From: Dudresnaya verticillata
Taxonomy: Eukaryota
Length of the DNA stretch: 64,000 bases
Assembly (NCBI GenBank): GCA_977862235.1
Contig: OZ374557.1
Coordinates: 992,001-1,056,000 of the forward strand
Reading direction: 5' to 3'
The translations under genes were made by a program, and so were the position numbers. How positions within the stretch are numbered: position 1 is the first letter of the stretch; each line of letters starts with the position of its first letter. Shown piece after piece: positions 3,178-59,374 of the stretch. The notes below the pieces were generated by a model. The model was not told the DNA's origin, did not search any database, and saw only the letters and a list, made by a program, of their open reading frames with translations.

Positions 3178-3600
3178 TTTGGTGTAGTGAAAAGTGTGGT
3201 GTAGTGAAAACCCACGAACTCCAAGACGGACATCTGGCTTGACTTTCCTTAACGGACGAGAGCAACACTATTACAAACAGTAACAAAACTGCACAGTGGC
3301 AAAATTACAAAGCGCCATAATAGCAGCTGACCTCAGCAATGTTTAATGAATTTTCAATCTACAAACGTGTTAGTCTTTATTGTAGTCTTTTCCTTAGTCT
3401 ATAGATTAAGTGCTAGTTTTAGTAAGTTCCATCGAGCTTTCTTTAACTACTAAAATTCTATAAAGGAGGTCTGCTCTCGACTCTCGTAGAGAAAGGGGGG
3501 CAAGCCGCAAAAGTCTGAAGCAAAAACTTCTGAGTCGGCGAGTCCAAGCAGTGTGTCAAAAGAACCGCGTGCTTCATCCACCACCCAAAAAAACCCAACA

Positions 3601-3689
3601 GTAAGTTTATTCATTACAGTGCTATCTGAGCCGCGACAAATTGGTAGCATCGCCTACTCGATCGCTAACGTTTATTTTTTTGTGTGCAG
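3601..3689 (+). other. Predicted spliceosomal intron spanning the LTR end and PBS of element B
   Basis: Donor GTAAGT at 3601 (conserved in the 3' LTR). Branch GCTAAC at 3664-3669, then a T-rich tract, and the first downstream AG is TGCAG ending at 3689. Confidence 0.75.
3642..3654 (+). other. Primer-binding site of B, probably initiator tRNA-Met
   Basis: TGGTAGCATCGCC 3 nt after the LTR. The TGGTAGC start matches iMet-type PBSs (e.g. yeast Ty1 TGGTAGCGCC). Confidence 0.65.
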
Positions 3690-4477
3690 TGAGCGCCAGC
3701 CCGCCCAGCATTGAGCCGAATAAGGCTAAGCAGCCTTTGAAAACAGCAGCACCGAATACGTCAAATACCGAGAAAACAATTGAAAAAGCAGAGAGTGAAA
3801 AACCAGGAAAAGAGAAGTTTGTGGTGAAGTGAGATTCGGCATCCGAAACGGTGGAAATGCATATAGTGTGGCCTGAACCGTTGTGGGATGTGTGCACGTG
3901 TACCCGTGTCGGTTTTGGGTTTGTTGTGTGCTGGCTTACATTGCTGTGCAGCAGTGGAGCGCATCAACCGCGGCGGAGTATTTGTAGTGTTTATTCTTTA
4001 TTTTTAGTGAGTATCTGTACAGTATGTAGAGTAGTACGCCAGCCAATGAGAATGCTGCGCATGTCCGTGTCGGGTATTGGGACCAGCAGGGCCGATTCCA
4101 CCATAGGACCAGACCACTAGGGTCTGGCCCCCGCGGACCGGACCGCTCGGTGCCACCCTGACTTGTATATCAGGGCGGCACCGCAGCGGCTCCTAAGGTA
4201 AACGGGTAAGCAACCTTAGCCCAATCCTTTACGGTTTTCCCCGCGCCGAGCCCGTTGCGGTCTACCACCACCACCGTTACGGAGTCCGTCCCGGGACTTG
4301 TACCACCCCCTTGTCTGTTGCTTCCCAATATTCGTCTCGGTTAGCCGCTCGCTGTTCTCCCGTCTCGGTGCGAACTGCTCTACCACCCCGTGGAGGTAGT
4401 GTTTCTCTCGTCCGTTAAGGAAAGTCAGGCCAGCTGTCCGTCTCGGAGTTCGTGGGTTTTCACTACACCGCATCTTT

Positions 4478-4495
4478 TGGTCTCCCGACCTAGAA
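4478..4495 (+). other. 18-nt primer-binding site TGGTCTCCCGACCTAGAA (A1)
   Basis: 5 nt after the LTR-terminal CA. The identical 18-mer follows LTRs at 20096, 38946 and 41748. Confidence 0.9.
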
Positions 4496-4620
4496 CACCG
4501 TCACGGTTGGAAGAAACAGCCGTCGAAATCCGCTACGGTAGGAATTCGGCTGTACCGACAACCCGTTACGGAATATTGGATAGACAAGCAAGAACAACCG
4601 TTGTGTTCCGTTAAGGTATC

Positions 4621-7100
4621 ATGCAGAACGAAGAACACGCAGACCCTCCCGTTACGGAACCTAAAGCGGGTGACACTACCCCCGCTGCGCGCAGTCTACG
4701 CAGTGAAGGAGGTGAAATCCGTTCCGGAGTGGAGAACCCAGAAGACATCCTAAAGGGTGCTGCTGGTAAAGCTCCCCGTTCCCGTGTCGGATCAGACGCC
4801 TCGAAGAAGGCAGCTCCGCAACCCAAGCCGGAATCCCATCGGGTCCACTGGGTCTTGTCGGAGGTCCTTCCTAGGGTGTTAGAGCATCTCCGATTGGAAG
4901 TACAACCTGGAATGGTAAAAGAGGTGGAGATATCCCTCTCGGAAACTGTTCCGTCTTTGGTTAATTCCTATCTGGAGCAGCACCTTCCTCGGATAGTGCA
5001 AGCTTTGATCCTACAGGAAAAGGTGGCCGCCGAGCTCGAGAGCCAGATTGCTCCCGGCATGGCAAGGCCTCCCGCTACGGAAGCTTTCACTGAGCAACCA
5101 CCGTTACGGAATGAATTCCCGGTCGAGGGAAGAACGCAGCAGCCGCAAAAAAACCCGTTATGGGATTTCCGCCGGGCATAGTACCCTCTGGGCCACTGCC
5201 ACCGGCTCCCGTAACGGATTCTCAACATCAACAAGCCCCTACGGGACCAACACACACTCAGCCACCGTTACGGCATTCTCCTGGACACGTAGATGTGCCT
5301 ACGCCAGGGCGCTATCAGCAAGAGCGCTATACCGTTCCGGTTCGATCAGGTGGAGGCAGCGGCCATCTCAGCGATGCGTCCAGCTCACCCCATCCGAGTC
5401 GGAGGACCGGTCGAGGTCGGCATAGACGAGGTGCCGGACACTCCCGCTCTGACCCTCCCCGTCGGTCGCACATGGGCGACCACACCCAGCGACGACGCCA
5501 CCAATCTGGTATGGAATCCAATGAGAGCAGCTCAGAGGATAGCCAACACCGCCGCCGCAAGAGGAGAAACAGAAGATCGCGGAAACGCGAAAAAAGGCAT
5601 GACTCCTCTACCTCTACGGATTCAGACTCAGAGAGTTCTTCCGTAACGGATAGAGAGAATAGGCACCGGGCCAGAAAACACGGTGCCAAATCCGGAAATG
5701 TTAAGGTAATCCGGCCGCTACATGACAAGTTTGTCAAGGCGCTGGACTACCGCACCTACCGATTGGATAAGAGGAGTAAGACCTACGGCTCTAAGTTCTC
5801 ACAGAACATGAGCCGTATACGGAAGAAACTCGACGTCCAGATGTCGTCCCATACATTCGATGGGACGGACCCTATTACCATCTTGGGATTTCTCGCTAAG
5901 TTCCGTGACGGTTGTAACATCAACGGCATCGCCGAAGGGGTTGCCGTCTGGTGCTTCCAGTTTTTCCTTAAAGGACAGGCCGAAGCCCTTCTACAGGCTA
6001 GGCTTGCTGGAGGTACCATGGCGGTTGATGTGGAGCAGTCCGAGATGCTCCGCACATATTCCGAGGTGGTGAACTTTTTATTGAGAACCTACGCTACGGA
6101 TGAAGTGATTGCTGAAGCCTATACGGATGTCAGTAACTTCAGGAAAACATCCGCCGTGACGGAAGAGCAGTACTCGAACCAGCTCTGGGCCAAGGCACTC
6201 CGTTGCGGTACAGTATTTTCCGATCGGGCATTGAAGTCACTGTTCGTTGGAGGACTCCTACCGGGCACTCGTCAACAGATGAGAAATTATCTAGCAACGC
6301 ATTCCCAGTTGGATTATCAGGCCATCACTCGCTATGCGACTGGCCTGGGTCAGTCCCATCGGGCAGCTCGACGCCAAACCATTCCGGCTCACGTCTTTGA
6401 TGGGCGCACTAAAGCACGCCCGTCTAAGGTGTTATCGCTGGACTCCGTCTCGGATGTACACTATGATCCGCAAGCAGATCCTTCCGTTACGGATGCTCAA
6501 GTCTAAGCTGTCGAGGGAGGCCACGGTGCCGCTACGGGAACGAGCACGGGGGTTACCTTTTCTACCCCGTACTCCTCGCCCCCGCAAAGCGTCCACCCTA
6601 CTCCGCCCAGGATGCCACGCGCGCAAGGTCCCCTCTATGGTGGATCTCGCCCGGCTCCTGGCCCCCAACAGCAGCCGAGTCACCGTTACGGAAATAATGC
6701 CCACGACGGGAGAGGACAGTAGCAACCAGCACCTCCGCTACGGGATGAGTCGGATCCTCGGGTCCGACGCCTTTACGGAAGTGGTAACTGTCGCATCTGC
6801 CTTTCGCCAGAGCACGTTGTTTGCCCATGGATACATGACTCCGATCGGGTTAGGCTTATGGAAGAGCGCGAGCGCAACTTCCAGAAGCATTACCCTGTCG
6901 GCCGCAGGTTCGTAGTAGGCACCAGTTCGAATCCACAAGGGAATCGGGGCAGGCCGCATACGCCCCCTCCGCAACGGAATGCCCCGATACTATCGGTGGA
7001 GGACCATGACGGAATGGAACTCGCAGAATTGCGCGAGTCCATGGAGGCGGATCCGACTGGTGCAACCTTGAATTCGGAAAACTCAAGGGGGGATGCGTAA
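4621..7100 (+). pseudogene. gag: A1 gag (frameshift ~5150, in-frame stops at 6504 and 6720)
   Basis: Arg/Ser-rich region, capsid-like FDGTDPITILGFL..GVAVWCFQFFL, and knuckle-like CRICLSPEHVVC. Confidence 0.85.
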
Positions 7101-10100
7101 GGGCGCCGCCATCCCCGCCTCACGGCGTTCCACCTCTCGCGAGTGTGGACCCGCCAGGGGATCGGCGAGATACCGTTACGGAACTCCCATTGGCTTATCA
7201 GACCAATGATACTATCTGCTTTATGCAACATCAAAATTACAAGATGCAAATTACCGTGGGACGGACAGATAGCGTGATGCTTCCTTTAATCTCCGTCTTG
7301 GACTCTGGCGCTGGGCCCAATCTCATTAGTGCCAGGCGCCTTCCGCGCCAATGGCTCCCATTCATACGCCCAGCAACCAGTCCTGCATTACGGGATGCGT
7401 CTAATCGTGCTATACGCCCTCTTGGTCAGATCCAACTTTTCGTCCGTATCGGAGAGATCCGTGCTCGCGTTGATTTTCTAGTGGTCGCGAACTTGGCGGC
7501 TCCCTGTATTTTGGGAACTACCTTCATCGACCGCTACGTGAAGGCAATCCTCCCTCCGTTACGGAAAGTTGTCTTTCATCATTACCCACCGGTATCCCTT
7601 GTTGGTCAAGCCAAAATTCCAATGACGGGAACCACTGCAACCCTACAGCCCTCACCTCTTTCTACCGCTACGGTTTCTCAGAAAATTCGTTTAGCAAAAT
7701 CTACCCTTATTCCCCCTATGACTCAAACCACCGTAACGGTTAATACCCCCACGGGTGGGTTATTCTTTCTACAAAATCATCCTAAGCCGGCTTTTAAGCA
7801 CCTTACGTTAATGGCTAATGGTATTATGGATGTTGTACCTAAAAAATCGTTTCGGATCTGGGTCTCTAATGTTTCTGATAAGCCGGTACGGTTGCCCAAA
7901 TCTACTGTCGTGGGCCTCGCTACTTCTGACCCTTCTGCTATTTTTACCGTCAACGGTATACCTCCATTTAAGGAGGGGGGAGGAATTATTCAATCATTTA
8001 ATTCTAACCCTACCTCCGAAAAGGCCAGCAGCATCTCCCCTCACGACGAGGAAGTAAGCAAACCCGTAACGGAAAATACAAATACTACCGACTGGAAGGA
8101 TCAGGTCCAGATCGGCACAGAAGAAGCATCGCTCCGTAATTGGATTTTAACCCTACTCGAGGAATATAAGTCGATTTGGAGTGGCGATCTTGGCAACATG
8201 ACAGCTGCCAAGCACCGCATCGAGTTAACTCCCGGAGCTAAGCCAGTATACCAAGCCCCATACCGTGCCGGACATAAGCAGCGAGATCTCGAAAAGACAG
8301 AGATCGATCGCATGCTTTCCGCTAAGGTAATTGAACCAGCCTCATCGGAGTGGGCCAGCCCCGTGGTTTTCGTTCTAAAAAAGGACGGCACCATGCGGTT
8401 CTGTGTGGACTATAGAAGTCTCAATTCCATAACGGTTAGGGACTCATATCCCTTGCCCAGGATGGATGAGTGCATGGATTCCCTTGGGGAAGCTACTGTA
8501 TTTACCACCCTGGATTGCAATAGCGGATATTGTCAAGTCGAGATTCCGGAAGAGGAAAGGGACAAAACTACCTTCACTAGCCATTTTGGCTTATACCATT
8601 GTCGGAGAATGCCATTTGGATTGAAAAATGCACCGGCAACCTTCCAACGGGCACTGGATATAATCCTTTCTACGGTTAAATGGCAATTTGCCCTCGTCTA
8701 CCTAGACGATGTAATTGTCTACTCAAAAACAGTTACGGAACATTTCCACCACCTGAAGGAAGTCCTTACGCTTTTACGATCCGCTGGGGTAACGTTGAAA
8801 TTGTCAAAGTGTGACTTCTTCAACGCGTCTGTACAATACCTGGGGCATGTTATCCGTCCCGGAAAATTAGAAGTGGATAATCGGAATATCCAATCCGTTA
8901 AGGTCGCGAAGCCGCCGACTAACCAAACGGAATTGCGATCCTTCTTGGGAATGTGCAACGTGTATCGTCGCTTTGTACCCAACTTCGCTCGGATTTCAGC
9001 ACCGCTAAATAAGAAAACCGGCAAGGGCTTATCCTTTGAGTTTGGAATATTATCCGATACGGAATATGAAGCCTTCGAGGAATTGAAGAGATGCCTTATC
9101 TCTCCACCTATATTGGCTCTACCCCGTCACGGATATAAATATACGTTGGACACTGACGCATGTGACCATCAAGTCGGCTGTGTCCTTCTGCAGGAACAAC
9201 CGAATGGCGCTCACCTCCCTATTGGATACTGGAGCCGAAGCCTCACCGATGCGGAGAAAAATTATACGACAACCGAAAAGGAATGCTTAGCCGTGGTCTG
9301 GAGCATGTTAACACTCCGACCCTACCTTTTCGGTGACAAGTTTATTCTCCGAACGGATCACGATGCCCTGCGATGGATCCTGAACCTCGCAGACTCATCT
9401 GCCCGCCTAGCCAGGTGAAGGCTCCGCCTATCGGAATTTGAATTCGAGGTGCAATACCGTCCTGGAATTAAGCATCAACTCGCCGATGGGATGTCGCGAC
9501 TCCGAACGGATGGCAGTGACGATAGACCTTTGGATGAAGAAATACCTTGCTTTGTCGCCGAAAACACCGTCGACGGATTATATGAGCATGGAGTTTATTT
9601 AACCGATTGGGCTACATCACAAGAAACCGCTACGGAAAATAACGTAATATGCGCCGTGGCGCCCGCCAGTGGGAGTGCATCCGCCTCCCCTGACAAGCCC
9701 GACGCAATAACGTCACGGTTTACTGTAATCCAAGAATCCGACGTTAAGGATGAGACAATTACCAGAGAGGAGTTCCTTGAAGTGCAAGCCCGAGACCCTT
9801 TCTGTCGTCTCAAAGCCGATACGGTAGGCTCTCCTGGATCACAGTTTGACTATGACCGTAACGGATTCTTGGTGCGCAAGTCCCAATTGGATGGTGCTCT
9901 GCAGAAGGTGGTACCAAGCGAACTCTGTGGACGGGTATTGTATTTATCCCACTACACCCTGATGTCGGGTCACCCAGGCGGAATTAAGATGTATTATACA
10001 CTCCGACAGGATTATTATTGGCCTCATATGGCCAACGATGTATTTGAATCCGTTCGGACATGTCGCTCCTGCGTGAAGACAAAGGGAACCCGCTTTCGGA

Positions 10101-11412
10101 ATCAAAGGTTTATGAAACTATTCCCCGCTAGCGGACCTTTGGAGTTTGTCGCTATCGACATTCTCGGGCCACTTCCGAAGACAAAACGGGGTTATGTCTA
10201 CGTTCTAGTAATAACCGATCGGTTCTCTAAGCTGACGCGCTGTATTCCGTTACGGACAACAACAGCCGTTGTGGTGGCTAGCGCCTTCCTGGACTTTTGG
10301 GTGTATGCGTATGGCGCACCCCAATTTGTCCTAACCGATAACGGACCGCAGTTTACTGCCAAGTTCTTTGACGCAGTGTGTTCCTTACTCGGAGTCAGGC
10401 ATCTACTTACCGCTGCCTACCATCCGCAGACAAGTGGGCAAGCTGAGCGATTTTATAAGACAATCGCCCAACGTTTGCGCCATTACGTTGAGGATCATCA
10501 CTCCGATTGGGATTTGTACCTGCAACTGTTGACATATGCGTACAAGATGCAGGTACACCGTATTACGGAAACAACGCCATTTGATTTGGTGCTGACACGC
10601 CACCCATCGGGTATTGTTGTACGAGGGGCTCCTGTCGAGCATCAAGAAACCGTTACGGAAGGGCGTATGACCCTGGTGCTACAGAAGCGGAGCACTATGC
10701 GCCGTTTACGGTATGCGCTCCAGACAGCGCACACTAAGCAGACGGTGGCTCAGCAAAAAGCCAAGGCACTGTTTGACCGTAAGGTGTGCTTTAGGGCCAT
10801 AATCCGTAACGGAGATCAAGTCTATGTCGACAGGCCGCGCCATAACTTGCGGCCTGCCGAACGTCGTGAACGGGACCGATTGGAAGGTAACCGGATGATG
10901 TGGGCGAGGTGGCTCAGGAAATGAAGAAACTCCTTCCGAGAGCCACGGGGCCTTATGAAGTGGAATCCGCAACGGAACATGTCGTTACAATCCGCAAGGA
11001 AGGGGTATTGATCCCCGTAAGTATCGATCGCATCACGAAGGTTCCGATCGGAGTTGCGGTTCAGCCGGCATCCTTAACAGTGCCGCCTGTCACGCCATCA
11101 ACCGTCTACGGAGAAGTAGTGCCACATCCAGAAGGTACTACAGTAGTACCTCCTTCTGAAGGTACTACTTCCTCCGCGACGGAACCACTGCAAGCCGATA
11201 CGGAATATGTGATCGACAAGATTGTCGGTCACCGCGACGAACCTACTGGGATGACGTACAAAGTCCGCTGGTATGGTTACCCTCCGGATCACGATACCTA
11301 CGAACCCGCCGAGGAATTGCCGCAGAACTTCATCTACCGCTATTGGAAGCAAAAACGCAAGAGCTCCGCTAAGGGAAAGCCACTGCGACGCCCAGCCAAG
11401 GCACGCCGCTAA
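7076..11412 (+). pseudogene. pol: A1 pol: protease, RT, RNase H, integrase, chromodomain
   Basis: LDSGA; RFCVDYR, MPFGL, YLDD; TDACD, EKECLAV; H..HPG..CRSC, IDILGP, TDNG, QAER; EYVIDKIVGHR..YKVRWYGY. Stop at 9416 and frameshift near 10890. Confidence 0.95.
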
Positions 11413-13648
11413 CCGTAACGGAAAACAAGCTACTGTCGCTTGCGGTAATCGCAACTCCCCGCGATGTGGCGACCCGGTTACGGGAACTGCGTCTTGTCGA
11501 CGCCTGCTACCGTTACGGGATTTCGTTGTTGCTCAAACTGGGGCATACCGCTCCGTCACGGATTTTGCCAGCGTGGGTCGCGTACCCTGCTGCTGACGTG
11601 ACCCATTTCCCGAAACGGTACTCTCGTTTTTCCGCAATATCGCAGCAGGCGTACTCTGCCCAGGTTCCACCGCTTATGCGGCACTCTTCCTTCACGGAAA
11701 TCGCTCTGAACACCGCGTCAGCCACCGTAACGGTGTTCGTCGTCGACCTTTCCGGGAGGGGCACGCCTTTTTCTTGCCATGGGTGGCCGCCCCATCACGT
11801 TTGGGCCAAGAACGGCCCCTTCCGCGACGGTACAGGAAAATTCCTCGGTCTCATTATTCTTCTCAGAGTCCCGGGGTATATATTAATATTGATGTTAATA
11901 TTAATGTTTTCAATATATTATTATATTGAAAATAATATATTAACACCGTCGCGGGTTGGGTTCATCTCAAGAGGGAGAGGTTCGTGGTGTGTCTCATACG
12001 GGCAGGGGTGAAGGTATTCGTCTGTAACCGCTACGGATTCCTGAAACACGCCACCTGCGACGGTTTGTGGCGTACCTAGCCCCCCAACTTCTCGCCACCC
12101 AAGTCGGAACAACTTCCGTCAGGAGGTAGCGGGTGTGCAATACCGTCATCCGATCGGAGTACGCATTGTCCATTGTGGATATGGGAGCGTAATCGACTGC
12201 GCGTTCGAGCAGACAGTTGGGGAAACGTATTCCGCTACGGTGAGAGCAACACTCTCCAAGCGTTTTTGCTCCTTTACGTGTGGTAGGACCCCCATGTCGG
12301 ATTTTTGCAAATGCGGCTGTCTGTGAGGTGTCTGGATTGCAATCCCGTTACGGTGAACGAGGGGTAAGATCTGGCGTCTGCTCCGTTGACACACGGGAGA
12401 AACCCGTTGCGGATGTTTTATGAGGCAGAAGACTGGCGACCAGCCTGGGCAAGAAATCCTTGCGGATGGCTCGCGACACTCGCGTATGCATATAGTGTGG
12501 CCTGAACCGTTGTGGGATGTGTGCACGTGTACCCGTGTCGGTTTTGGGTGCATTGTTGTGTGCTGGCTTACATTGCTGTGCAGCAGTGGAGCGCATCAAC
12601 CGCGGCGGAGTATTTGTAGTGTTTATTCTTTATTTTTAGTGAGTATCTGTACAGTATGTAGAGTAGTGCGCCAGCCAATGAGAATGCTGCGCATGTCCGT
12701 TTCGGGTATTGGGACCAGCAGGGCCGATTCCACCATAGGACCAGACCACTAGGGTCTGGCCCCCGCGGACCGGACCGCTCGGTGCCACCCTGACTTGTAT
12801 ATCAGGGCGGCACCGCAGCGGCTCCTAAGGTAAACGGGTAAGCAACCTTAGCCCAATCCTTTACGGTTTTCCCCGCGCCGAGCCCATTGCGGTCTACCAC
12901 CACCACCGTTACGGAGTCCGTCCCGGCACTTGTACCACCCCCTTGTCTGTTGCTTCCCAGTATTCGTCTCGGTTAGCTGCTCGCTGTTCTCCCGTCTCGG
13001 TGCGAACTGCTCTACCACCCCGTGGAGGTAGTGTTTCTCTCGTCCGTTAAGGAAAGTCAGGCCAGCTGTCCGTCTCGGAGTTCGTGGGTTTTCACTACAC
13101 CACAAAGTTAACAAACGTGGAAAATAAGGACAGATGTTTGGCAAAATTTCCGAGTGCTTTAACGGGACCGACATTCAATATTAAAGCCAAGCCTAATGAC
13201 AGTAACAAAAAGTGTTTCCAGTGCGGTCACACTAAATTTGCCAACCAATGCTGGGACGACCATAACACATCCAAATTACACCTGGAAGAAATATTCAAGA
13301 GAGAAGGATTTAATACGGCTGTAAGCCATTTAGATCGCCAATACGACCGTTTTGTTAACATTAACTGCGACCTTTGTGGAACGCGTTACAGTAGCAAAAT
13401 ATTATTCAAAAATCACCAATACGGTGAGGAACATATTAGGTGAGGAAATCAGCTTCGTGACCTAGTTAAGGCAGCTGCTGGGAGTGGCTATATTGACAAG
13501 TGGCACATCATAGCTAAACCACCAAAAGTCTACGTTCGGGAGATTTCTAAGGTGCTCAGAAACTGCAAAAAATAAGAATTAAATTGATCTTTGTGGGATT
13601 GAAAAAATAAAATAAAATATATAAATAAAATATATTACAATTAGGAAA

Positions 13649-14514
13649 ATGGACGCCACACAGCAGGTCCAAAATTTACAGAATCAAGTACCCGCCTTAC
13701 AGCAACAGCTCGGACAGGCAAACCAGACCTTGCAAGAAGCAACACAGACATATCAAAATGTGACGCAATCAAACATCGGCAATAACCTAAGAACGGGTAA
13801 ACCTGATAAGTTCAGCGGTAAATTTGCTCGGAGTTGGGTTAAAGCCTTGAAAATATTTTCAATAGCCAGAACAATCCTGTACCTGAAGATAAAAAGGTTA
13901 AGTATGCCGTAAGCTATATGACTGGTGCTGGAATACAATGGTGGGAGTTAATAAGTTTAAACAACATTGATATACCAACATTTGAGATATTTAAGATTAA
14001 ATTGTTGGAACACTTTGAACCTGTAAACAGAGAGTTGAATGCACGTAAGATGCTAAATGAATTAAAACAAATGGGAAGCTTCAACACAGTTAGAAAATAC
14101 AACCAAGAATTCTCTACGTGGTTGTTACAGATACCGAGCATGGCTCCAGCAGAACAGATATTTCACTACAGTCAGGGCCTGAAACACAGGACCAGGGTGG
14201 AAGTGGAAAGGGCTTACCCCAATACCCTACAATAAGCTATGCAAATAGCGGATAGACTAGACAGTCTATATACTCCACGATTTGGGGGCAATGGTTTCCG
14301 CAATGGAAACGGAAATGGAAACTCATCAGATGGGCCAGTACCTATGCAGATTGGAATAATTCCCTAGAGACGAGGAAATCGCCTATCACCAGCAGAAAGG
14401 AAACGCTATATGGATGAAAATCTTTGTTTCATATGTGCACAAAAAGGGTGTTATGCAAGAAAACATTACAAAACTGGGGCCAGCCAAGCCGTAAAACAGG
14501 AAGAGAAAAACTAA
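13649..14514 (+). pseudogene. gag: B gag (frameshift and stops)
   Basis: KPDKFSG, YMTGAGIQWW, LKQMGS..YNQEF, GPVPMQIG, and a degenerate knuckle LCFICAQKGCYAR. Confidence 0.85.
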
Positions 14515-17500
14515 TTGCTCCGTTGAGTCACTTCGGCACGGCGACGGAGAAACAAACAATAGCCGAGGGTCAAGAAAAAGATACAAAAAATACAAAAACA
14601 TTGCAAAAACAAGAAAAAGAACAAAACGAGAGAGTAGTAGGTAGTATAAAAGTATGTGCATTTTCACCATACAAAAAGAGAAGGAAGTCCAGGCGACAAG
14701 CATTGTTGGTATACAATGGGACAGTACGAAGCGGTACCAGTAAATTCCATTGCAAGACGCTGGTAGACTCTGGTTGTGAAGAAATAGTAATGTCAAAGAA
14801 ATACGCAGACGCGTTGGAACTGCAGAGAGAAAAGACTGATCTCAACGTAGAATTATGGGACCAGACACTTGTTCCGATGGAAAGGGGTGTGGAGGATCTG
14901 GAATTGCGGATTGGAGAGGCCGTTATAATGGTCAGACCATATATAGTTGATTGGATCGCTTACGACTTAATCCTAGGCAAGACGTGGCTTTCTGAAGCTA
15001 ATGCAATAATCAACTGGAAGTTGAACCCATGCTCCTTAAGCAAGGGGACAGATTAATAGCTCTGGACGCAGAGGCTTGTAATCATGGGGCATCCCTCCCG
15101 ACATATGTGCTTACAAGTAAACAATTTAAGAGATTAGTGAGAAGAGAAAAAAGTGTGATATATCACATATTGGTAAAGAACGCCAAAGAATAAGAAAAAG
15201 AAGCAGGTAATAGTCCTGGGAACCAAACAGGTAACAGCCCTGGAAGTGAAGCAGGTAATAGTCCTGAAAGTTCATCAGGTAATAGCCCTGAAGAAGATGA
15301 ATATAAAACAAAACTAAATAAAATATTGGCGGAGTACAAAGATGTATTCCCAGTCCAACTACCAAAGGGTCTACCCCCGGAGAGGGTAGTGGAGATGAAA
15401 ATAAACTTGGAAGAGGGTGTGAGACCCAAAATGGGACCACTCTACAAGTTATCAAAAACAGAACTTGAAGAGATGAAAAAACAATTAGAGGAAGCCCTCA
15501 CGCAAGGGTTCATCCGACCAAGCATCAGTCCTTGGGGCAGTCCAGTACTGTTCACTCCTAAAAAGGATGGAGGACTGAGAATGTGTATTGACTATAGGGC
15601 ACTGAACAAACAAACTATTAAAAACCAGGTTCCATTACCGAGAATTGATGAGGTGTGGGATCAGATTGGGGGAGCGCAATACTTCTCTACAGTGGATCTA
15701 AGATCAGGATATCACCAAATTCGAGTACATGAGAATGATATTGAAAAAGCTGCATTCCGCACAAGATACGGACAGTTTGAATATCTTGTAACACCATTTG
15801 GGTTAACTGGAGCATCAGGGTGTTTCCAGACTTTAATGAACATTATTTTCCAACCCTATTTGGACAAATTCGTACTAGTGTACTTGGACGATATACTTAT
15901 CTACAGTAAGACAAAAGAAGAACACCTAGAACATATCAAAGTAGTGTTGAAATTACTTAGAGAAAATAAGCTTTATGGGAAACTATCAAAGTGTGAGTTC
16001 CTAAAACAGAATCTAGAATATTTAGGCCACATAATAAGTGATCGAGGAATACAAGTTGACCAAAGAAAAATCAAAGCAGTACAGAAATGGGAAGTTCCCG
16101 AAACCGTAACACAAGTCCAGAGTTTTCTAGGACTTTTCAATTATTACAGGAGGTTCGTGAAGAATTTGCTACTATCGCAACTCCTTTAACGGAGCTGACG
16201 AAAAATAAAAATGCCTTTGTGTGGGGTGAAAAAGAACAAATTGCCTTTGAACCGTTAAAAGAAGCTTTAACGAAAACACCTGTGTTACGTTGTGCAGACC
16301 CAGGTTTACCCTACGATATAACAGCTGACGCTTCTGGGACAGGAATAGGAGCTGTATTATCACAAAAAGATGAACTGGGAATCCGACCAGTGGCTTATGC
16401 ATCAAGGAAATTGAATCCTGCAGAGCAAGGTTACAGTACCCATGAGCGAGAGCTATTAGCTATTGTGTATGCATTACAGACGTGGAGATCTTATCTACAT
16501 GGAGCTAAGTTCAAAATACATACAGATCACCATCCACGGAAGTACTTGGATACACAAAAGACCCTATCACGTAAACAAGCGAGGTGGGTTGAGTTTATGC
16601 AAGAGTTTGATTACGAAGTACACTATATCAAGGGAAAAGAAAACAAAGTCGCAGACGCTCTCTCTAGGAAGTACAAGGAAGTGTATAAGACATCCACCTC
16701 CTTCATATCAAAATTAATGACGATAACTACCGTATCCGTCTCAGAGCGGGTGCTTAAACGATTAGAAAAGGAGTATCTCGAAGACGAGAAATTTAAAGAA
16801 CATTACAATAAGCCATCAGAACCGTATAAGCGGAAGGACAAGAGACTTTATTTCGAAAATAGATTATGCCTACCAGAAGGCGAGACAAGAAAAACAGTGC
16901 TACATGATAACCATGAGTCCTTAATTGGAGCACACCGAGGTTACAAACGGACGCTTCATAATATATCGAGCCATTACTTCTGGCCAAACATGAAAAAGGA
17001 AGTTTACAACTATGTAAAGAGTTGCCAGAGGTGCCAAGAATCGAAAAGCAGAAACCAAAAGGCGCCAGGAACTAGTCGACCATTCCCTCCGCCAACACGT
17101 AAGTGGGAGGAAATATCCATTGACTTCATTTTTGACCTACCTAAGACGAAACGGAACAAAAACGCCATCATGGTTGTGGTGGACAAATTATCGAAACGAG
17201 CGCACTTTATCGCTCTAGAACCCAACTTTAACGGATTCAACGCTGCGCAGGTATTTTACGAGGAAGTATACAAACATCATGGAATACCGAAAAAATTATA
17301 TCAGATAGAGATACCCGCTTTACGGGGACATTTTGGCAAGAGCTGATGAAATTGCTGCAAGTTAAGCTGAATCTTTCAACCGCATTTCATCCACAGACAG
17401 ATGGCCAATCCGAGCGAGCGTTTAGGACGCTTGAAGAAATGTTGAGATGCTTCATCTCTAGTACACAGAAAGATTGGGACAAATACCTACCCGGAGTTGA

Positions 17501-18164
17501 ATTTGCATACAACAACTATACAAACGAGACAACCAAAAACAAGCCTTTCTATTTGGAATACGGACAACATCCATTAACAGTTTCCGATATACTACATACG
17601 GAACACTCAGTTAATGACCAATCCCAAACCTTCTTGGAGGACATGAAGAAGGCAAACGAGATCGCCCAACAAGCAATTAGAGATACAAACTTGCATACAC
17701 AGGACACAGAAAATGGAAACGAAAAACAATACGAAGTCGGAGACCACGTGATGTTATCAACTAAGAACCTACCCAAACCACTCGGTAAAACCAAGACATT
17801 CCTTCCGAAGTTCATTGGTCCATTCACCATCGTTAACAAAGTAGCTGACGGCAGAGCCTATCGACTAGAACTGCCATCCGAATATAAGGAGCTACATCCT
17901 ACATTTCATATTTCGTTACTCAAGCCTTATATGGACGACCAACATTAGAGAAATGTTCCAAAAAAGCTTCATTTAGGAAGATCACCTACAGGAAGACGCA
18001 TTGAGAAGATCGTCGCACACCGCCTACATGAAGGTCAAGTCGAGTTTCTAGTGCATTTTAGCAACACTGATGCCATTGAAAACACATGGTTACCTGAAAA
18101 CGAAGTCGCACAGCTTCCAGCGCTTATCCATAACTACTTCAACAAGTTATTCGAGGACGAGTAA
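14505..18164 (+). pseudogene. pol: B pol: protease, RT, RNase H, integrase with GPF motif, chromodomain
   Basis: LVDSGC; RMCIDYR, GYHQIR, YLDD; ADASG, ERELLA; HRG..CQRC, IDFIF, QSER; PKFIGPF; IEKIVAHR..FLVHF..NTWLP. Several frameshifts and stops. Confidence 0.95.
15200..15295 (+). repeat. Four 24-bp tandem repeats in the B protease-RT spacer
   Basis: Core CAGGTAAYAGYCCTG repeated four times at 24-bp spacing, encoding xxGNSPx. Confidence 0.8.
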
Positions 18165-20208
18165 GACAATTAAGAGGGGAGGAGTTGTTACAAACAGTAA
18201 CAAAACTGCACAGTGGCAAAATTACAAAGCGCCATAATAGCAGCTGACCTCAGCAATGTTTAATGAATTTTCAATCTACAAACGTGTTAGTCTTTATTGT
18301 AGTCTTTTACTTAGTCTATTGATTAAGTGCTAGTTTTAATAAGTTCCATCGAGCTTTCTCTAACTACCAAAATTCTATAAAGGAGGTCTGCTCTCGACTC
18401 TCGTAGAGAAAGGGGGCAAGCCGCAAAAGTCTGAAGCAAAAACTTCTGAGTCGGCGAGTCCAAGCAGTGTGTCAAAAGAACCGCGTGCTTCATCAACCAC
18501 CCAAGAAACCCAACAGTAAGTTTATTCATTACAGTGCTATCTGAGCCGCGACAAACACTACCTCCACGGGGTGCTAGAGCAGTTCTCACCGAGACGGGAG
18601 AACAGCTAGCGGCTAACCGAGACGGATATTGGGAAGCAACAGACAAGGGGGTGGTACAAGTGCCGGGACGGACTCAGTAACGGTGGTGGTGGTAGACCGC
18701 AATGGGCTCGGCGCGGGGAAAACCGTAAAGGATTGGGCTAAGGTTGCTTACCCGTTTACCTTAGGAGCCGCTGCGGTGCCGTCCTGATATACAAGTCAGG
18801 GTGGTACCGAGCGGTCCGGTCCGTGGGGGCCAGACCCTAGTGGTCTGGTCCTATGGTGGAATCGGCCCTGCTGGTCCCAATCTCCGACACGGACATGCGC
18901 AGCATTCTCATTGGCTGGCGCACTACTCTACATACTGTACATATACTCACTAAAAATAAAGAATAAACACTACAAATACTCCACTTCGGTTGGTGCGCTC
19001 CACTGCTGCACAGCAATGTACGCCAGCACACAACAATGCACCCAAAACCGACACGGGTACACGTGCACACATCCCACAACGGTTCAGGCCACACTATATG
19101 CATTTCCATCGTTTCGGATGCCGAATCTCACTTCACCACAGACCCCTCCTTAAATGGCGCCACGTCCTCGTGCGCCCACCTTCAAGGGGTTGCGGCTTGG
19201 GTCCGACGCACCGTCATCGGATTCGAGCAGCTTTTCCAGGTCCTTCGTCAACTGGTCTACTGCCGCCACGGTTTGCTTCGATGCGTTGGGAAACCCCACG
19301 CACCTCCAATACCAGGACTTCCGTCACGGAGAATAACCAAAACGCGCTTGACGCGAGTGTCGCGAGCCATCCGCAAGGATTTCTTGCCCAGGCTGGTCGC
19401 CAGTCTTCTGCCTCATAAAACATCCGCAACGGGTTCCTCCAGTGTGTCAGCGGAGCAGACGCCAGATCTTACCCCTCTTTCACCGTAACGGGAGTGCAAT
19501 CCAGACACCTCACAGACAGCCGCATTTGCAAAAATCCGACATGGGGGTCCTACCACACATAACGGAGCAAACCCTCTGTAATACAGTGAAGGGCTTACAG
19601 AAATGGGCCCTCTGCACCCCTGTATGCGGGGAAATAGCGTTACCTATAGGGCGCCAGCAGGGACAAGATGGGTAGTCTATGATTGGTCCAAGTGTCACCC
19701 TGCAGGTCAGTAGCTTAGTATCTGCCTATTTATTTTAGAAATTAAGCTTAGGATAGGGGCGTGTATATAGCCCAGTATGAGGGGTGCTGCCTGACAGTCG
19801 GAGTACCATATAAGGGTATCTCCCGTAGCGGTCACTGAACAGTAAAGGTAAGCACCTTCCGGCCCCAACTACGTCTCCAAGCTATCGGCTCCGCAGCACA
19901 CTTGTCACTCGTGCCCGGTTAACCACCCGCCCAGTGAACTACCTTCAGTATCGTGCTTCCAATCAGGTTACGTGCCCTCGTCTACCCTCTGGGTTCCTCC
20001 CGCTCTACCACCGCTACCAGGTACCCGCTCTGTGGCTTTCTCATTGAGTGCACTCTTTGAGTTCACAAGAGACCTAAAAGGCACTTCCTTACATCTGGTC
20101 TCCCGACCTAGAACTTCAAGATTGGTGAGCCGTTAAGAGGACGACGAATATCGTAACCCAATTGGATACTGAAGAAAATCAACCCACCAAGGCCCCTGTT
20201 ACTCCAAG

Positions 20209-57100: not shown

Positions 57101-59374
57101 ATTGTCCGGAGGTGTTCAGAGAGACACCGGGGGAGTGCAAGGCGATACTGTTCAGAACAGGGGACTTCCAAAGGCAAAAATACTCATGGACCATACCATC
57201 CAGGGGCAGGAGAGTTGTTGGAAATGAACGCTTTGTTCTTGTTACCGTCGTTGCCCAGGTGTACACGAGCCGGGTGACCAACGGGAGCCAGATGGGGGTA
57301 TTTATTGTAGCAACGGGAGCTGTCCTGATGGTTTCCGCAGTGTACGCAGGTCTCCGCAGAGGGACTCTTGCGCGAGTTGGAACTATTGGTGGCCATTAGG
57401 ACTGCAGTATGAGAAGTATTGAGAGCCTCCTTATCCCAATCAGCTTGCCTCTGTTATTCCTGCAAGCACCGACTCTGCACAAACTCGAATGTGAAGAGTT
57501 TGTCATCGATATGCGCGGCATGCAAAACCGAAATAAGGCTCTCAAACCCATCCGGAAGGCCATTCAGTAGTGCCATGGCCATTTCGGGGTCCTCAATACT
57601 GACCGACATGGGCTTAAGAGCGGCGCAGAGTTGGCGAATGAGAGCGGCAAAGCGCAGAAACTTTTCATTTTCATGCATTCTTGCTGTGTAAAAACGGTGT
57701 CTTGCAGCGAGCTTGTTGAGGAGGAAATGTTTCTCGTAAATGTCACAGATGAGAGACCACATCTCCTTGGCGGAATATGCATGCTGCACTTGCTCCAGCT
57801 GCGCGTCAGAAATAGTTCATCCGACTAGGCGTTTGCTTTGCGGTCGCTCTTGCACCATTCTTCATATTCTTTCGAGGAATTTTCAGGATGGTCATCCGAA
57901 ATGTAGCCGTTAATCTCCTTCAGGGACAGAACAAGCTGCATGCGGGTCTTCCAAGTGTGGAAGATGTTGTCCCGCAGCTAGTTGATCTTGATGTCAGAGG
58001 TGGTTTCCATGGTCCAGGAGAGCTAAGGAAGTTTACATGTTGTGCTTAATGAGGTTCTTATCGCGATCGTGGCGAGTAGGGAACACGCGCTGATAGTGAC
58101 CACAAGTTGTACTTGCGGACAGTCGTTCTACCTGGTTCCTAAAGTTCTTACTGTTCCGGTAGCGAATGGGCTGCTTGAAACCGGACACCTCGATACCGCA
58201 CAAGTCGCAAATTGGTCGCTTTGCGTTTGGTCGGGCTGAACTTGTGAAGACAAGCGACAAAAATACGGATACTGCTGTGGGCGTTGGTGGAGGTGAACGA
58301 GGAGGCTTTCGAACCTACTTGATGACGGGCCTGACAGGGGAAGATGATGGAGTAGTGGTAGTTGAGCGCACGTTACCACCCTCATAGTGAGACTAAATGG
58401 CAGAATCGTAGACGGGCGAGTGCTTCGGGCGTGGGCGAGGGCAGACAGCAAGGGGTATGCGAACAGCCCGGGGGACGCGGATGATGCGGGATACACGAGG
58501 TTGGCGGGAAGGGTCGTTGTTGAAGTTGAGTTAACGAACGATGGGTCGCGGCGCGATATGCGAATACCGCGGTAGCGGATAGATCGACAGATGGGCACTG
58601 GAGGGGGGTTAGGCTCAGGGAAAGAGGAAAGAGTGAAGAAAAGAGGATTGTAAGTCGCAAGAAAAGTACTGCCGAATAGCGAAGCGGGCCAAGAAACAAC
58701 CGAAGTATGTGAAGCAGAGACGGAAGGGCGATTCAACACCGGCAACACGCACCGCGGGACAAACCGAAGTATGTAACGCAGAGACGAGCCATCGGCGAGT
58801 AGATAGGAGCGTTACTGGGCCCATAACCTATTGGAGAGGTAGTGGGAGCCATCAGGGGAGGAGAGAAGTGGATAGCTGAGAGGAGAGGGTGACGAATGGA
58901 GTTGTCTGAGTCTACTGGAAGCGTGAGGAGAGAAGCTGTTTAAGTAGATCATGGGTCCCAGAGTTGGAGGATGCGCAAGATGTGCTTGACGTCGGCGATA
59001 ATGTGCACACCTAAGTGACGACGGCGACGGTGGACAAATCTAGGTCACGACGGCGACGGTGCATAAGCCTCACCTAAGTGACGACGGCGGTGGTGCATAA
59101 ACCTAAGTGATGACAGCGACGGTGCACAACCCTAGCCTAAGTGACGCCGTTGACGATGCGTAAACCTAAGTTACGACGGCGCCGGTGCGTCAGTGATCTG
59201 AGCTGAATCAGGATCTGATCTCGTTGCGCACCGTGCAACTTCGTAAGCGACACACAGCGGTCCAAGCATGACTGAGGTGTGGAGGAGGCCAGTGGGGACA
59301 CACCAAATGCCCACTCACACTAATGCAGCAAAATGATAGAGTGCTAGGTTGGACAGATATCGCTTAATCTACCA
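54166..59374 (-). mobile_element. Decayed Ty1/Copia: LTR 58829-59374, PBS 58815-58828, gag, PR, IN, RT, truncated RNase H
   Basis: PBS GGTTATGGGCCCAG is the copia-type site for the iMet half-tRNA. Gag ALLNGLPDGFE; IIDSGC; LWHQRLAH; QQNGVA; TAFLNG, YGLKQ; MYLMICTRPDL. Confidence 0.88.
59009..59191 (+). repeat. Six tandem units CCTAAGTGACGACGGCGACGGTGCA, alternating ~29 and ~35 bp
   Basis: Direct reading; lies within the putative Copia LTR. Confidence 0.8.

Follow-up and report, generated by a model that had tools for sequence, protein, structure and literature searches.

A 64,000-nucleotide (nt) stretch of the Dudresnaya verticillata assembly GCA_977862235.1 (contig OZ374557.1, positions 992,001–1,056,000; hereafter the window) contains a Gypsy retrotransposon, element B, with an accessory gene between its primer binding site (PBS) and gag. 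The gene encodes a protein with two zinc fingers, is interrupted by a nested Gypsy element (A1) and has no genomic ATG. Its start codon is predicted to be assembled by splicing, from an A that ends exon 1 and a TG that follows a short intron at the end of the 5′ LTR (long terminal repeat). The features of the locus are listed in window coordinates, with + for the forward strand.

3269–3638, +: 5′ LTR of B, 97% identical to the 3′ LTR and flanked by AACAC
3459–3466, +: TATA-like box, from sequence; transcript start inferred about 30 nt downstream
3600, +: 3′-terminal base of predicted exon 1, which supplies the A for the split start codon; A at −3 (from sequence)
3601–3689, +: predicted 89-nt GT-AG intron, spanning the LTR end (3638) and the PBS; same layout in elements L012 and L010
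3642–3654, +: PBS, TGGTAGCATCGCC, within the predicted intron
3690–3819, +: 5′ piece of the accessory gene; holds the start codon's TG plus 42 codons of low complexity
3820–13104, +: nested Gypsy element A1, interrupting the accessory gene; duplication AAGTT at 3815–3819 and 13105–13109
13110–13575, +: 3′ piece of the accessory gene; encodes both fingers and a helical, basic tail, with a premature TGA (13441–13443) and the terminal TAA (13573–13575)
13213–13281, +: zinc finger 1, C-x2-C-x12-H-x5-H, by sequence pattern
13366–13434, +: zinc finger 2, C-x2-C-x12-H-x5-H; matches zf-met weakly and short of the cut-off (E = 0.011)
13576–13648, +: AT-rich spacer without ATG, containing AATTGA and four copies of the hexamer A(A/T)TAAA; candidate early poly(A) site
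13649–18164, +: gag-pol of B in several frames; capsid, protease, reverse transcriptase (RT), RNase H, integrase and chromodomain
18186–18553, +: 3′ LTR of B, with a polypurine tract before it; the donor recurs here at 18516

The original prediction, made from the letters of the window, had described this intron, and all of its coordinates hold. The donor GTAAGT (3601) lies 38 nt before the LTR end and recurs in the 3′ LTR; the branch site GCTAAC (3664) is followed by a T-tract; and the acceptor CAG (3687–3689), just past the PBS, is the first AG after the branch. Joining the A before the intron to the TG after it would create a start in frame with the two-finger open reading frame (ORF). The claim that this ORF has no in-frame genomic ATG was likewise borne out: the frame is free of Met, and upstream of the acceptor a stop is encountered before any Met. 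With A1 removed, the gene pieces on either side keep the same phase (128 nt followed by offset 1), and the frame runs for 154 codons to the TGA at 13441 or 198 to the TAA at 13573. The strict pattern A^donor–branch–YAG^TG (carets mark predicted splice sites) occurs once in the window, at the B site itself, and had a mean of 0.08 occurrences in 60 dinucleotide-resampled windows, five of which contained one, counted before requiring that the intron span the PBS or lie in frame. A looser intron pattern was at chance level in the window (8 seen, 6.6 expected), and no shared RNA fold was found over the intron (z = 0.6, −1.1, −0.9 and −2.8).

The split start and its signals recur in three of the four other elements with a readable 5′ end; a further relative, L009, lacks its 5′ end and was excluded from this count. 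L012 has A^GTAAGT, a PBS, CTGAC and CAG^TG, giving an 86-nt intron and a Met-free frame of 202 amino acids, and L010 has A^GTAAGT, a PBS, CTAAC and TAG^TG, giving a 138-nt intron and 257 amino acids, again with no Met. The third, L034 (G001:C118), turned up during control collection; its RT is of chromovirus type and falls outside the B clade (support 98/99). It has A^GTAAGT, CTAAC and CAG^TG around an 88-nt intron (9–96, oriented), followed by a Met-free frame of 233 amino acids (99–797, oriented) that encodes a Pro-rich arm and two fingers. Homology of its protein to the B family was not detected beyond the finger pattern (hhalign probability 21%, no profile match). The L034 intron also contains a 10-codon ORF. 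Across the split-start elements, the branch CT(A/G)AC lies 21–26 nt before the first AG and is accompanied by a pyrimidine tract. Among 79 chance donor-plus-PBS loci from viral contigs, YAG^TG was found in none and a branch with YAG in two; tRNA-Tyr-type Gypsy elements of the G001 bin had a donor near the PBS in none of four. Among database proteins, in all six comparable cases, the residue given as the initial M is V or L in a sibling call, and the over-called amino termini of P0129, P0131, P0154 and P0167, judged from the proteins and not from DNA, appear to read like translated PBS, branch or acceptor sequence.

By its pattern of conservation, the accessory ORF is a real, conserved gene. 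A library search gave 26 matches, of which 24 are family members (most of 170–235 amino acids) and two, P0143 and P0146, were removed as unrelated; a further search added four more members, and none of those looked up in databases is named. One relative is 53% identical over 99% of the B 3′ piece, identity to B is 21–53% for 22 aligned members, and the Cys and His residues are conserved. Of 26 family proteins, 15 retain two intact fingers, and the others are truncated or damaged. The TGA at 13441 is a lesion, as the original prediction had allowed, because the frame stays open at this column in all 18 relatives that extend to it. Codon positions 1 and 2 are better conserved than position 3 (0.39–0.66 versus 0.28–0.38); B, L012 and L010 have 30–38% of amino acids in common, with third positions near random (0.30–0.34). 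This codon pattern supports the predicted conservation of the ORF, but the ratio of non-synonymous to synonymous substitutions (dN/dS) could not be computed for five of six pairs, in which dS is saturated (sixth pair, 1.02/2.64). The gene directly precedes a gag related to that of B in L009, L010 and L012, between PBS and gag; L013 holds a fragment only. Five protein scans of viral contigs found no relative, three DNA patterns gave 87 loci in viral contigs with no sign of these elements (79 of which supplied the chance loci above), and a first scan of metagenomes was empty. Among bacterial genomes (sets of 257, 401 and 401), such contigs occurred only in G001, a 2.5-Mb bacterial bin (L012, L016–L046) with 16 RT loci, at least 12 of them Gypsy-type; these loci are eukaryotic contamination.

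Measured from the TATA-like box to gag, or from the contig start for L009 and L034, the leaders of these elements are 0.8–1.4 kb long and nearly free of ATG in all frames: five leaders contain 8 ATGs (B 3, L012 1, L010 0, L009 2, L034 2) against 58.4 expected from dinucleotides (P = 2 × 10^−16), and gag stretches of equal length contain 18–23. The avoidance extends to synonymous sites, at which NAT codons account for 1 of 30 cases when G follows and 44 of 130 when another base does (P = 0.0005), compared with 113 of 177 and 236 of 429 in gag-pol controls. Internal Met makes up 9 of 5,518 residues (0.16%) in 27 family proteins, compared with 1.6–2.1% in RT proteins. As in rice tungro bacilliform virus (RTBV), the upstream ORF is all but free of internal AUG in all frames. 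The predicted junction start has a purine at −3 in all four elements and G at +4 in none, whereas the gag ATG has G at +4 in all five (A−3/G+4 for the gag ATG of B at 13649). In all four B-clade elements (B, L009, L010 and L012), AATTGA follows soon after the stop in the AT-rich spacer, a possible 3′-end signal.

Under the scanning model of initiation, ribosomes on such a leader can traverse the whole accessory gene and initiate at gag, whose ATG has a strong context. Were the accessory gene to have its own genomic ATG, this passage would be blocked, a conflict that a start codon built by splicing would resolve. We consider it likely that the split start makes a predicted RNA-binding protein from spliced RNA and that the unspliced, ATG-poor RNA acts both as genome and as the message for gag-pol. 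What the sequences themselves establish is the set of signals and its conservation, the existence of the protein family and the avoidance of ATG; the remaining steps we infer. The predicted intron would be removed from part of the transcripts. On unspliced RNA, ribosomes would scan the leader to the strong gag ATG; on spliced RNA, the junction start would capture most of them and some would leak past. An internal promoter or a second intron for gag is disfavoured, because neither would require ATG avoidance across the whole extra gene. In the B clade, the intron contains the LTR end and the PBS, so the spliced RNA would not be reverse-transcribable and the intron would not be lost through retrotransposition. 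The donor of L034, however, begins just after the PBS, and its spliced RNA would retain that site; PBS loss is thus a lineage-specific extra. The binary switch of the original prediction accordingly gains independent backing from the leaders, which suggest that unspliced RNA is the gag message, and loses PBS removal as a general design, which holds for B, L012 and L010.

The accessory protein is likely to bind RNA, judging by its fingers and modelled fold. Two fingers in an ORF upstream of and separate from gag were correctly foreseen, and their spacing, with a long helix and basic residues after the second His, is that of matrin/U1/JAZ fingers (PF12874, PF12171; ZNF346, U1C, SF3a). The proposed profile check against zf-met and zf-C2H2_jaz nevertheless went against the label for the B family, which stays below the Pfam cut-offs (B 16.5 versus 21.2 bits; best family E = 0.0038); only the L034 protein passes (zf-C2H2_jaz 38.3 bits, zf-met 32.7 bits). 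The G-K-K positions between the histidines of JAZ fingers contribute to RNA contact. Here the equivalent positions are acidic instead of basic (finger 1, 15 of 23; finger 2, 19 of 20), but the B family still has a basic tail and, following the last His, Arg-Arg; for most full-length members, the charge of core plus tail is roughly +10 to +15. The HxxSKxH ending noted for B is present there but not typical of the family. A fold model of P0123 was of moderate quality (predicted local distance difference test 76, predicted template modelling score (pTM) 0.34). In structure, finger 2 comes closest to RNA-binding fingers of the matrin type, all weak matches, with a tRNA-modifying enzyme, JAZ, U1 small nuclear ribonucleoprotein chains and TUT1 in near-ties at Z 3.8–4.4; the matrin-type alignments cover 37–67 residues with a root-mean-square deviation of 0.9–2.3 for four of the top five, at that same pTM.

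That the protein acts back on RNA of the element itself is the least certain step. Among the roles considered, we rank regulation of the element's own RNA first, because a short intron of perfect consensus has to be maintained in the genome RNA of the element; silencing suppression comes second, and packaging or chromatin roles follow. Even the first is a tentative assignment. In its specific form, in which the protein favours retention, export or stability of unspliced RNA in the manner of CERV or Rev, it is possible, though short of an even chance. The same switch could instead yield a suppressor of host RNA silencing that binds double-stranded or small interfering RNA, which we regard as rather unlikely. 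JAZ finger 3 (2mkd/2mkn) is the best PDB sequence match (E = 0.049) and ranks second in both fold searches, the L034 protein and the basic core and tail fit such a role, and P4 of RTBV, the product of a spliced RNA, has been implicated in suppression of RNA interference (PMC5902531). Yet none of 17 B-family members reaches the cut-offs or an E below 0.0038, the residues replacing the basic KK of JAZ are acidic, fingers of U1C, SF3a, TUT and tRNA-modifying proteins tie with JAZ, and the lead from the Atlas, recognition 1999 with 158 features in common, is weak.

Two rivals change the messages themselves. Spliced RNA might be the sole message, bicistronic for the finger protein and a leaky-scanned Gag-Pol, with unspliced RNA only packaged. 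The +4 contrast between junction and gag starts and the ATG-poor downstream leader would suit this, but a weak genomic ATG would then suffice without an intron, and the persistence of a split codon in separate lineages implies a need for unspliced RNA to remain without ATG, and hence its translation; we judge this rival improbable. Marginally more improbable is that no splicing occurs and translation begins on unspliced RNA at a GTG, made up of the acceptor G and the TG next to it, while leaky scanning takes ribosomes on to gag, as for RTBV ORF I. Such a start is automatically in frame and is used by gene callers, the ATG-free leader is equally compatible with it, and the RTBV precedent is real (PMC5902531); it leaves unexplained, however, a perfect A^GTAAGT, branch and pyrimidine tract where neutral sites are saturated, and the GTG of L010 has T at −3. 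That the ORF is a captured host fragment with splice signals arising by chance, as the chance-level loose motifs might suggest, is refuted by the 24 diverged clusters with conserved Cys and His, the codon-position pattern and the constant place between PBS and gag.

Several observations weigh against the proposed switch and the role of its protein. The degraded relative L011 (640–1124), damaged by a frameshift and a stop, shows no canonical donor up to 150 nt from its PBS and no AG^TG near it, and has an in-frame ATG at 787; the predicted conservation of the splice signals fails in this element. The full layout is known as DNA in four elements only, three of which are contigs that probably collapse multi-copy families, two of them from one bin, and the first residue of most database proteins is uncheckable at the DNA level. 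The B leader itself contains three ATGs, which are out of frame. Structural matches to the protein are weak (Z at most 4.4, Foldseek E 0.6 or worse), and a leucine-rich export signal of the Rev type had no motif position in common among 23 proteins, which weakens a strict Rev analogy.

Each ingredient of the arrangement has a precedent, in springer env, foamy virus or RTBV, and the combination appears to be new. In the Drosophila springer subclade, the env start codon is completed by a splice junction that joins AU to the env exon (PMC12992720), as splicing is predicted to complete the start in B. The springer intron, however, removes gag-pol and the gene follows pol, whereas here an intron of 86–138 nt lies at the PBS, the gene precedes gag and the split is A^TG. 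In RTBV and badnaviruses, accessory ORFs upstream of the polyprotein are kept clear of internal AUGs across some 900 nt, which allows ribosomes to get through to the polyprotein, and RTBV, as proposed for B, also makes an accessory protein through splicing (PMC5902531). Unlike B, RTBV belongs to another family, has no LTRs and starts ORFs I and II at a genomic AUU or weak AUG on the same RNA; the available text of PMC5902531 describes no splice-built start for the upstream ORF. The major donor of prototype foamy virus (+53) resembles that of B in lying in the LTR upstream of the PBS, giving spliced RNAs without a PBS (PMC2761275), but foamy virus has long introns, genomic starts and a leader filled with short ORFs and crossed by shunting. 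Caenorhabditis elegans Cer1, a Gypsy element, makes the Rev-like CERV from a spliced mRNA (PMC10309623). CERV is our model for the possible function, a likeness drawn from expression; unlike the gene in B, it is multi-exonic, overlaps gag and has a normal ATG. MDG1-group elements have conserved accessory ORFs upstream of gag, sORF1 and sORF2, on a short, early-polyadenylated transcript (bioRxiv 10.1101/2025.03.14.642691), but no splicing is seen and the proteins are not zinc fingers. We also compared plant surveys (PMC7264820, PMC6317226 with its 250-codon threshold, PMC3350952, PMC7828637 and PMC5408684). In agreement with the original prediction, according to which no described chromovirus is known to have this arrangement, our literature search, with subscription papers and repeat libraries outside its scope, turned up no account of the combination or of the protein family.

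Element B itself is a chromovirus (Ty3/Gypsy) by its LTRs, PBS, polypurine tract and domain order (gag, protease, RT, RNase H, integrase), with a chromodomain at the integrase end (PF00385, 36.3 bits versus a cut-off of 25.1). In an RT tree built without named reference elements, it falls in its own clade (98/99) beside land-plant RTs. We take its PBS, TGGTAGCATCGCC, to resemble the complement of the initiator-Met tRNA 3′ end, on the basis of the A1-U72 rule. The copy is dead, with gag-pol split over several frames; its LTRs differ by 8 mismatches and 2 gap columns in 370, and its target duplication is AACAC. B sits in a minus-strand LTR (window 3190–3268 and 18554–19121) of the same family as A1, which inserted later into B, so that B and the A1 family are reciprocally nested. 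In the 3′ LTR of A1 (window 12486), roughly the first 37 bases are missing, as is the purine tract next to them. Four Gypsy elements in the window (4478, 20096, 38946 and 41748) have the common PBS TGGTCTCCCGACC, presumably tRNA-Tyr-like, which also occurs in four G001 contigs and suggests a related host. The label of the G001 bin, Algimonas, a genus associated with algae, and the style of the introns would tentatively point to a red seaweed as host. At 58979–59196, a 63-nt tandem repeat of 3–4 units lies near the end of a Copia-like element. Outside the window, L012 gag has an in-frame stop at 2282, and L010:1–530 is the 3′ end of an element preceding the LTR, as with collapsed or tandem copies.

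For one group of LTR elements, these results would explain how a single promoter supplies genome, Gag-Pol and accessory protein. They may reflect an old, overlooked chromovirus strategy, in which a micro-intron at the PBS builds the sole start codon of a hidden accessory gene within a kilobase-long AUG-free leader and the matrin-finger product feeds back on the element's own splicing or export in a Rev-like way, an idea that we offer with less than even confidence. Annotation based on ATG would miss this class because its genes have no ATG; they would also escape a 250-codon threshold such as that of PMC6317226. The signature A^GT..AG^TG near a PBS, together with an ATG-free leader, is a simple guide to such hidden retrotransposon genes, and the results add a nameless family of element-encoded zinc-finger proteins, comprising at least 24 clusters, that may act as RNA regulators or in counter-defence.

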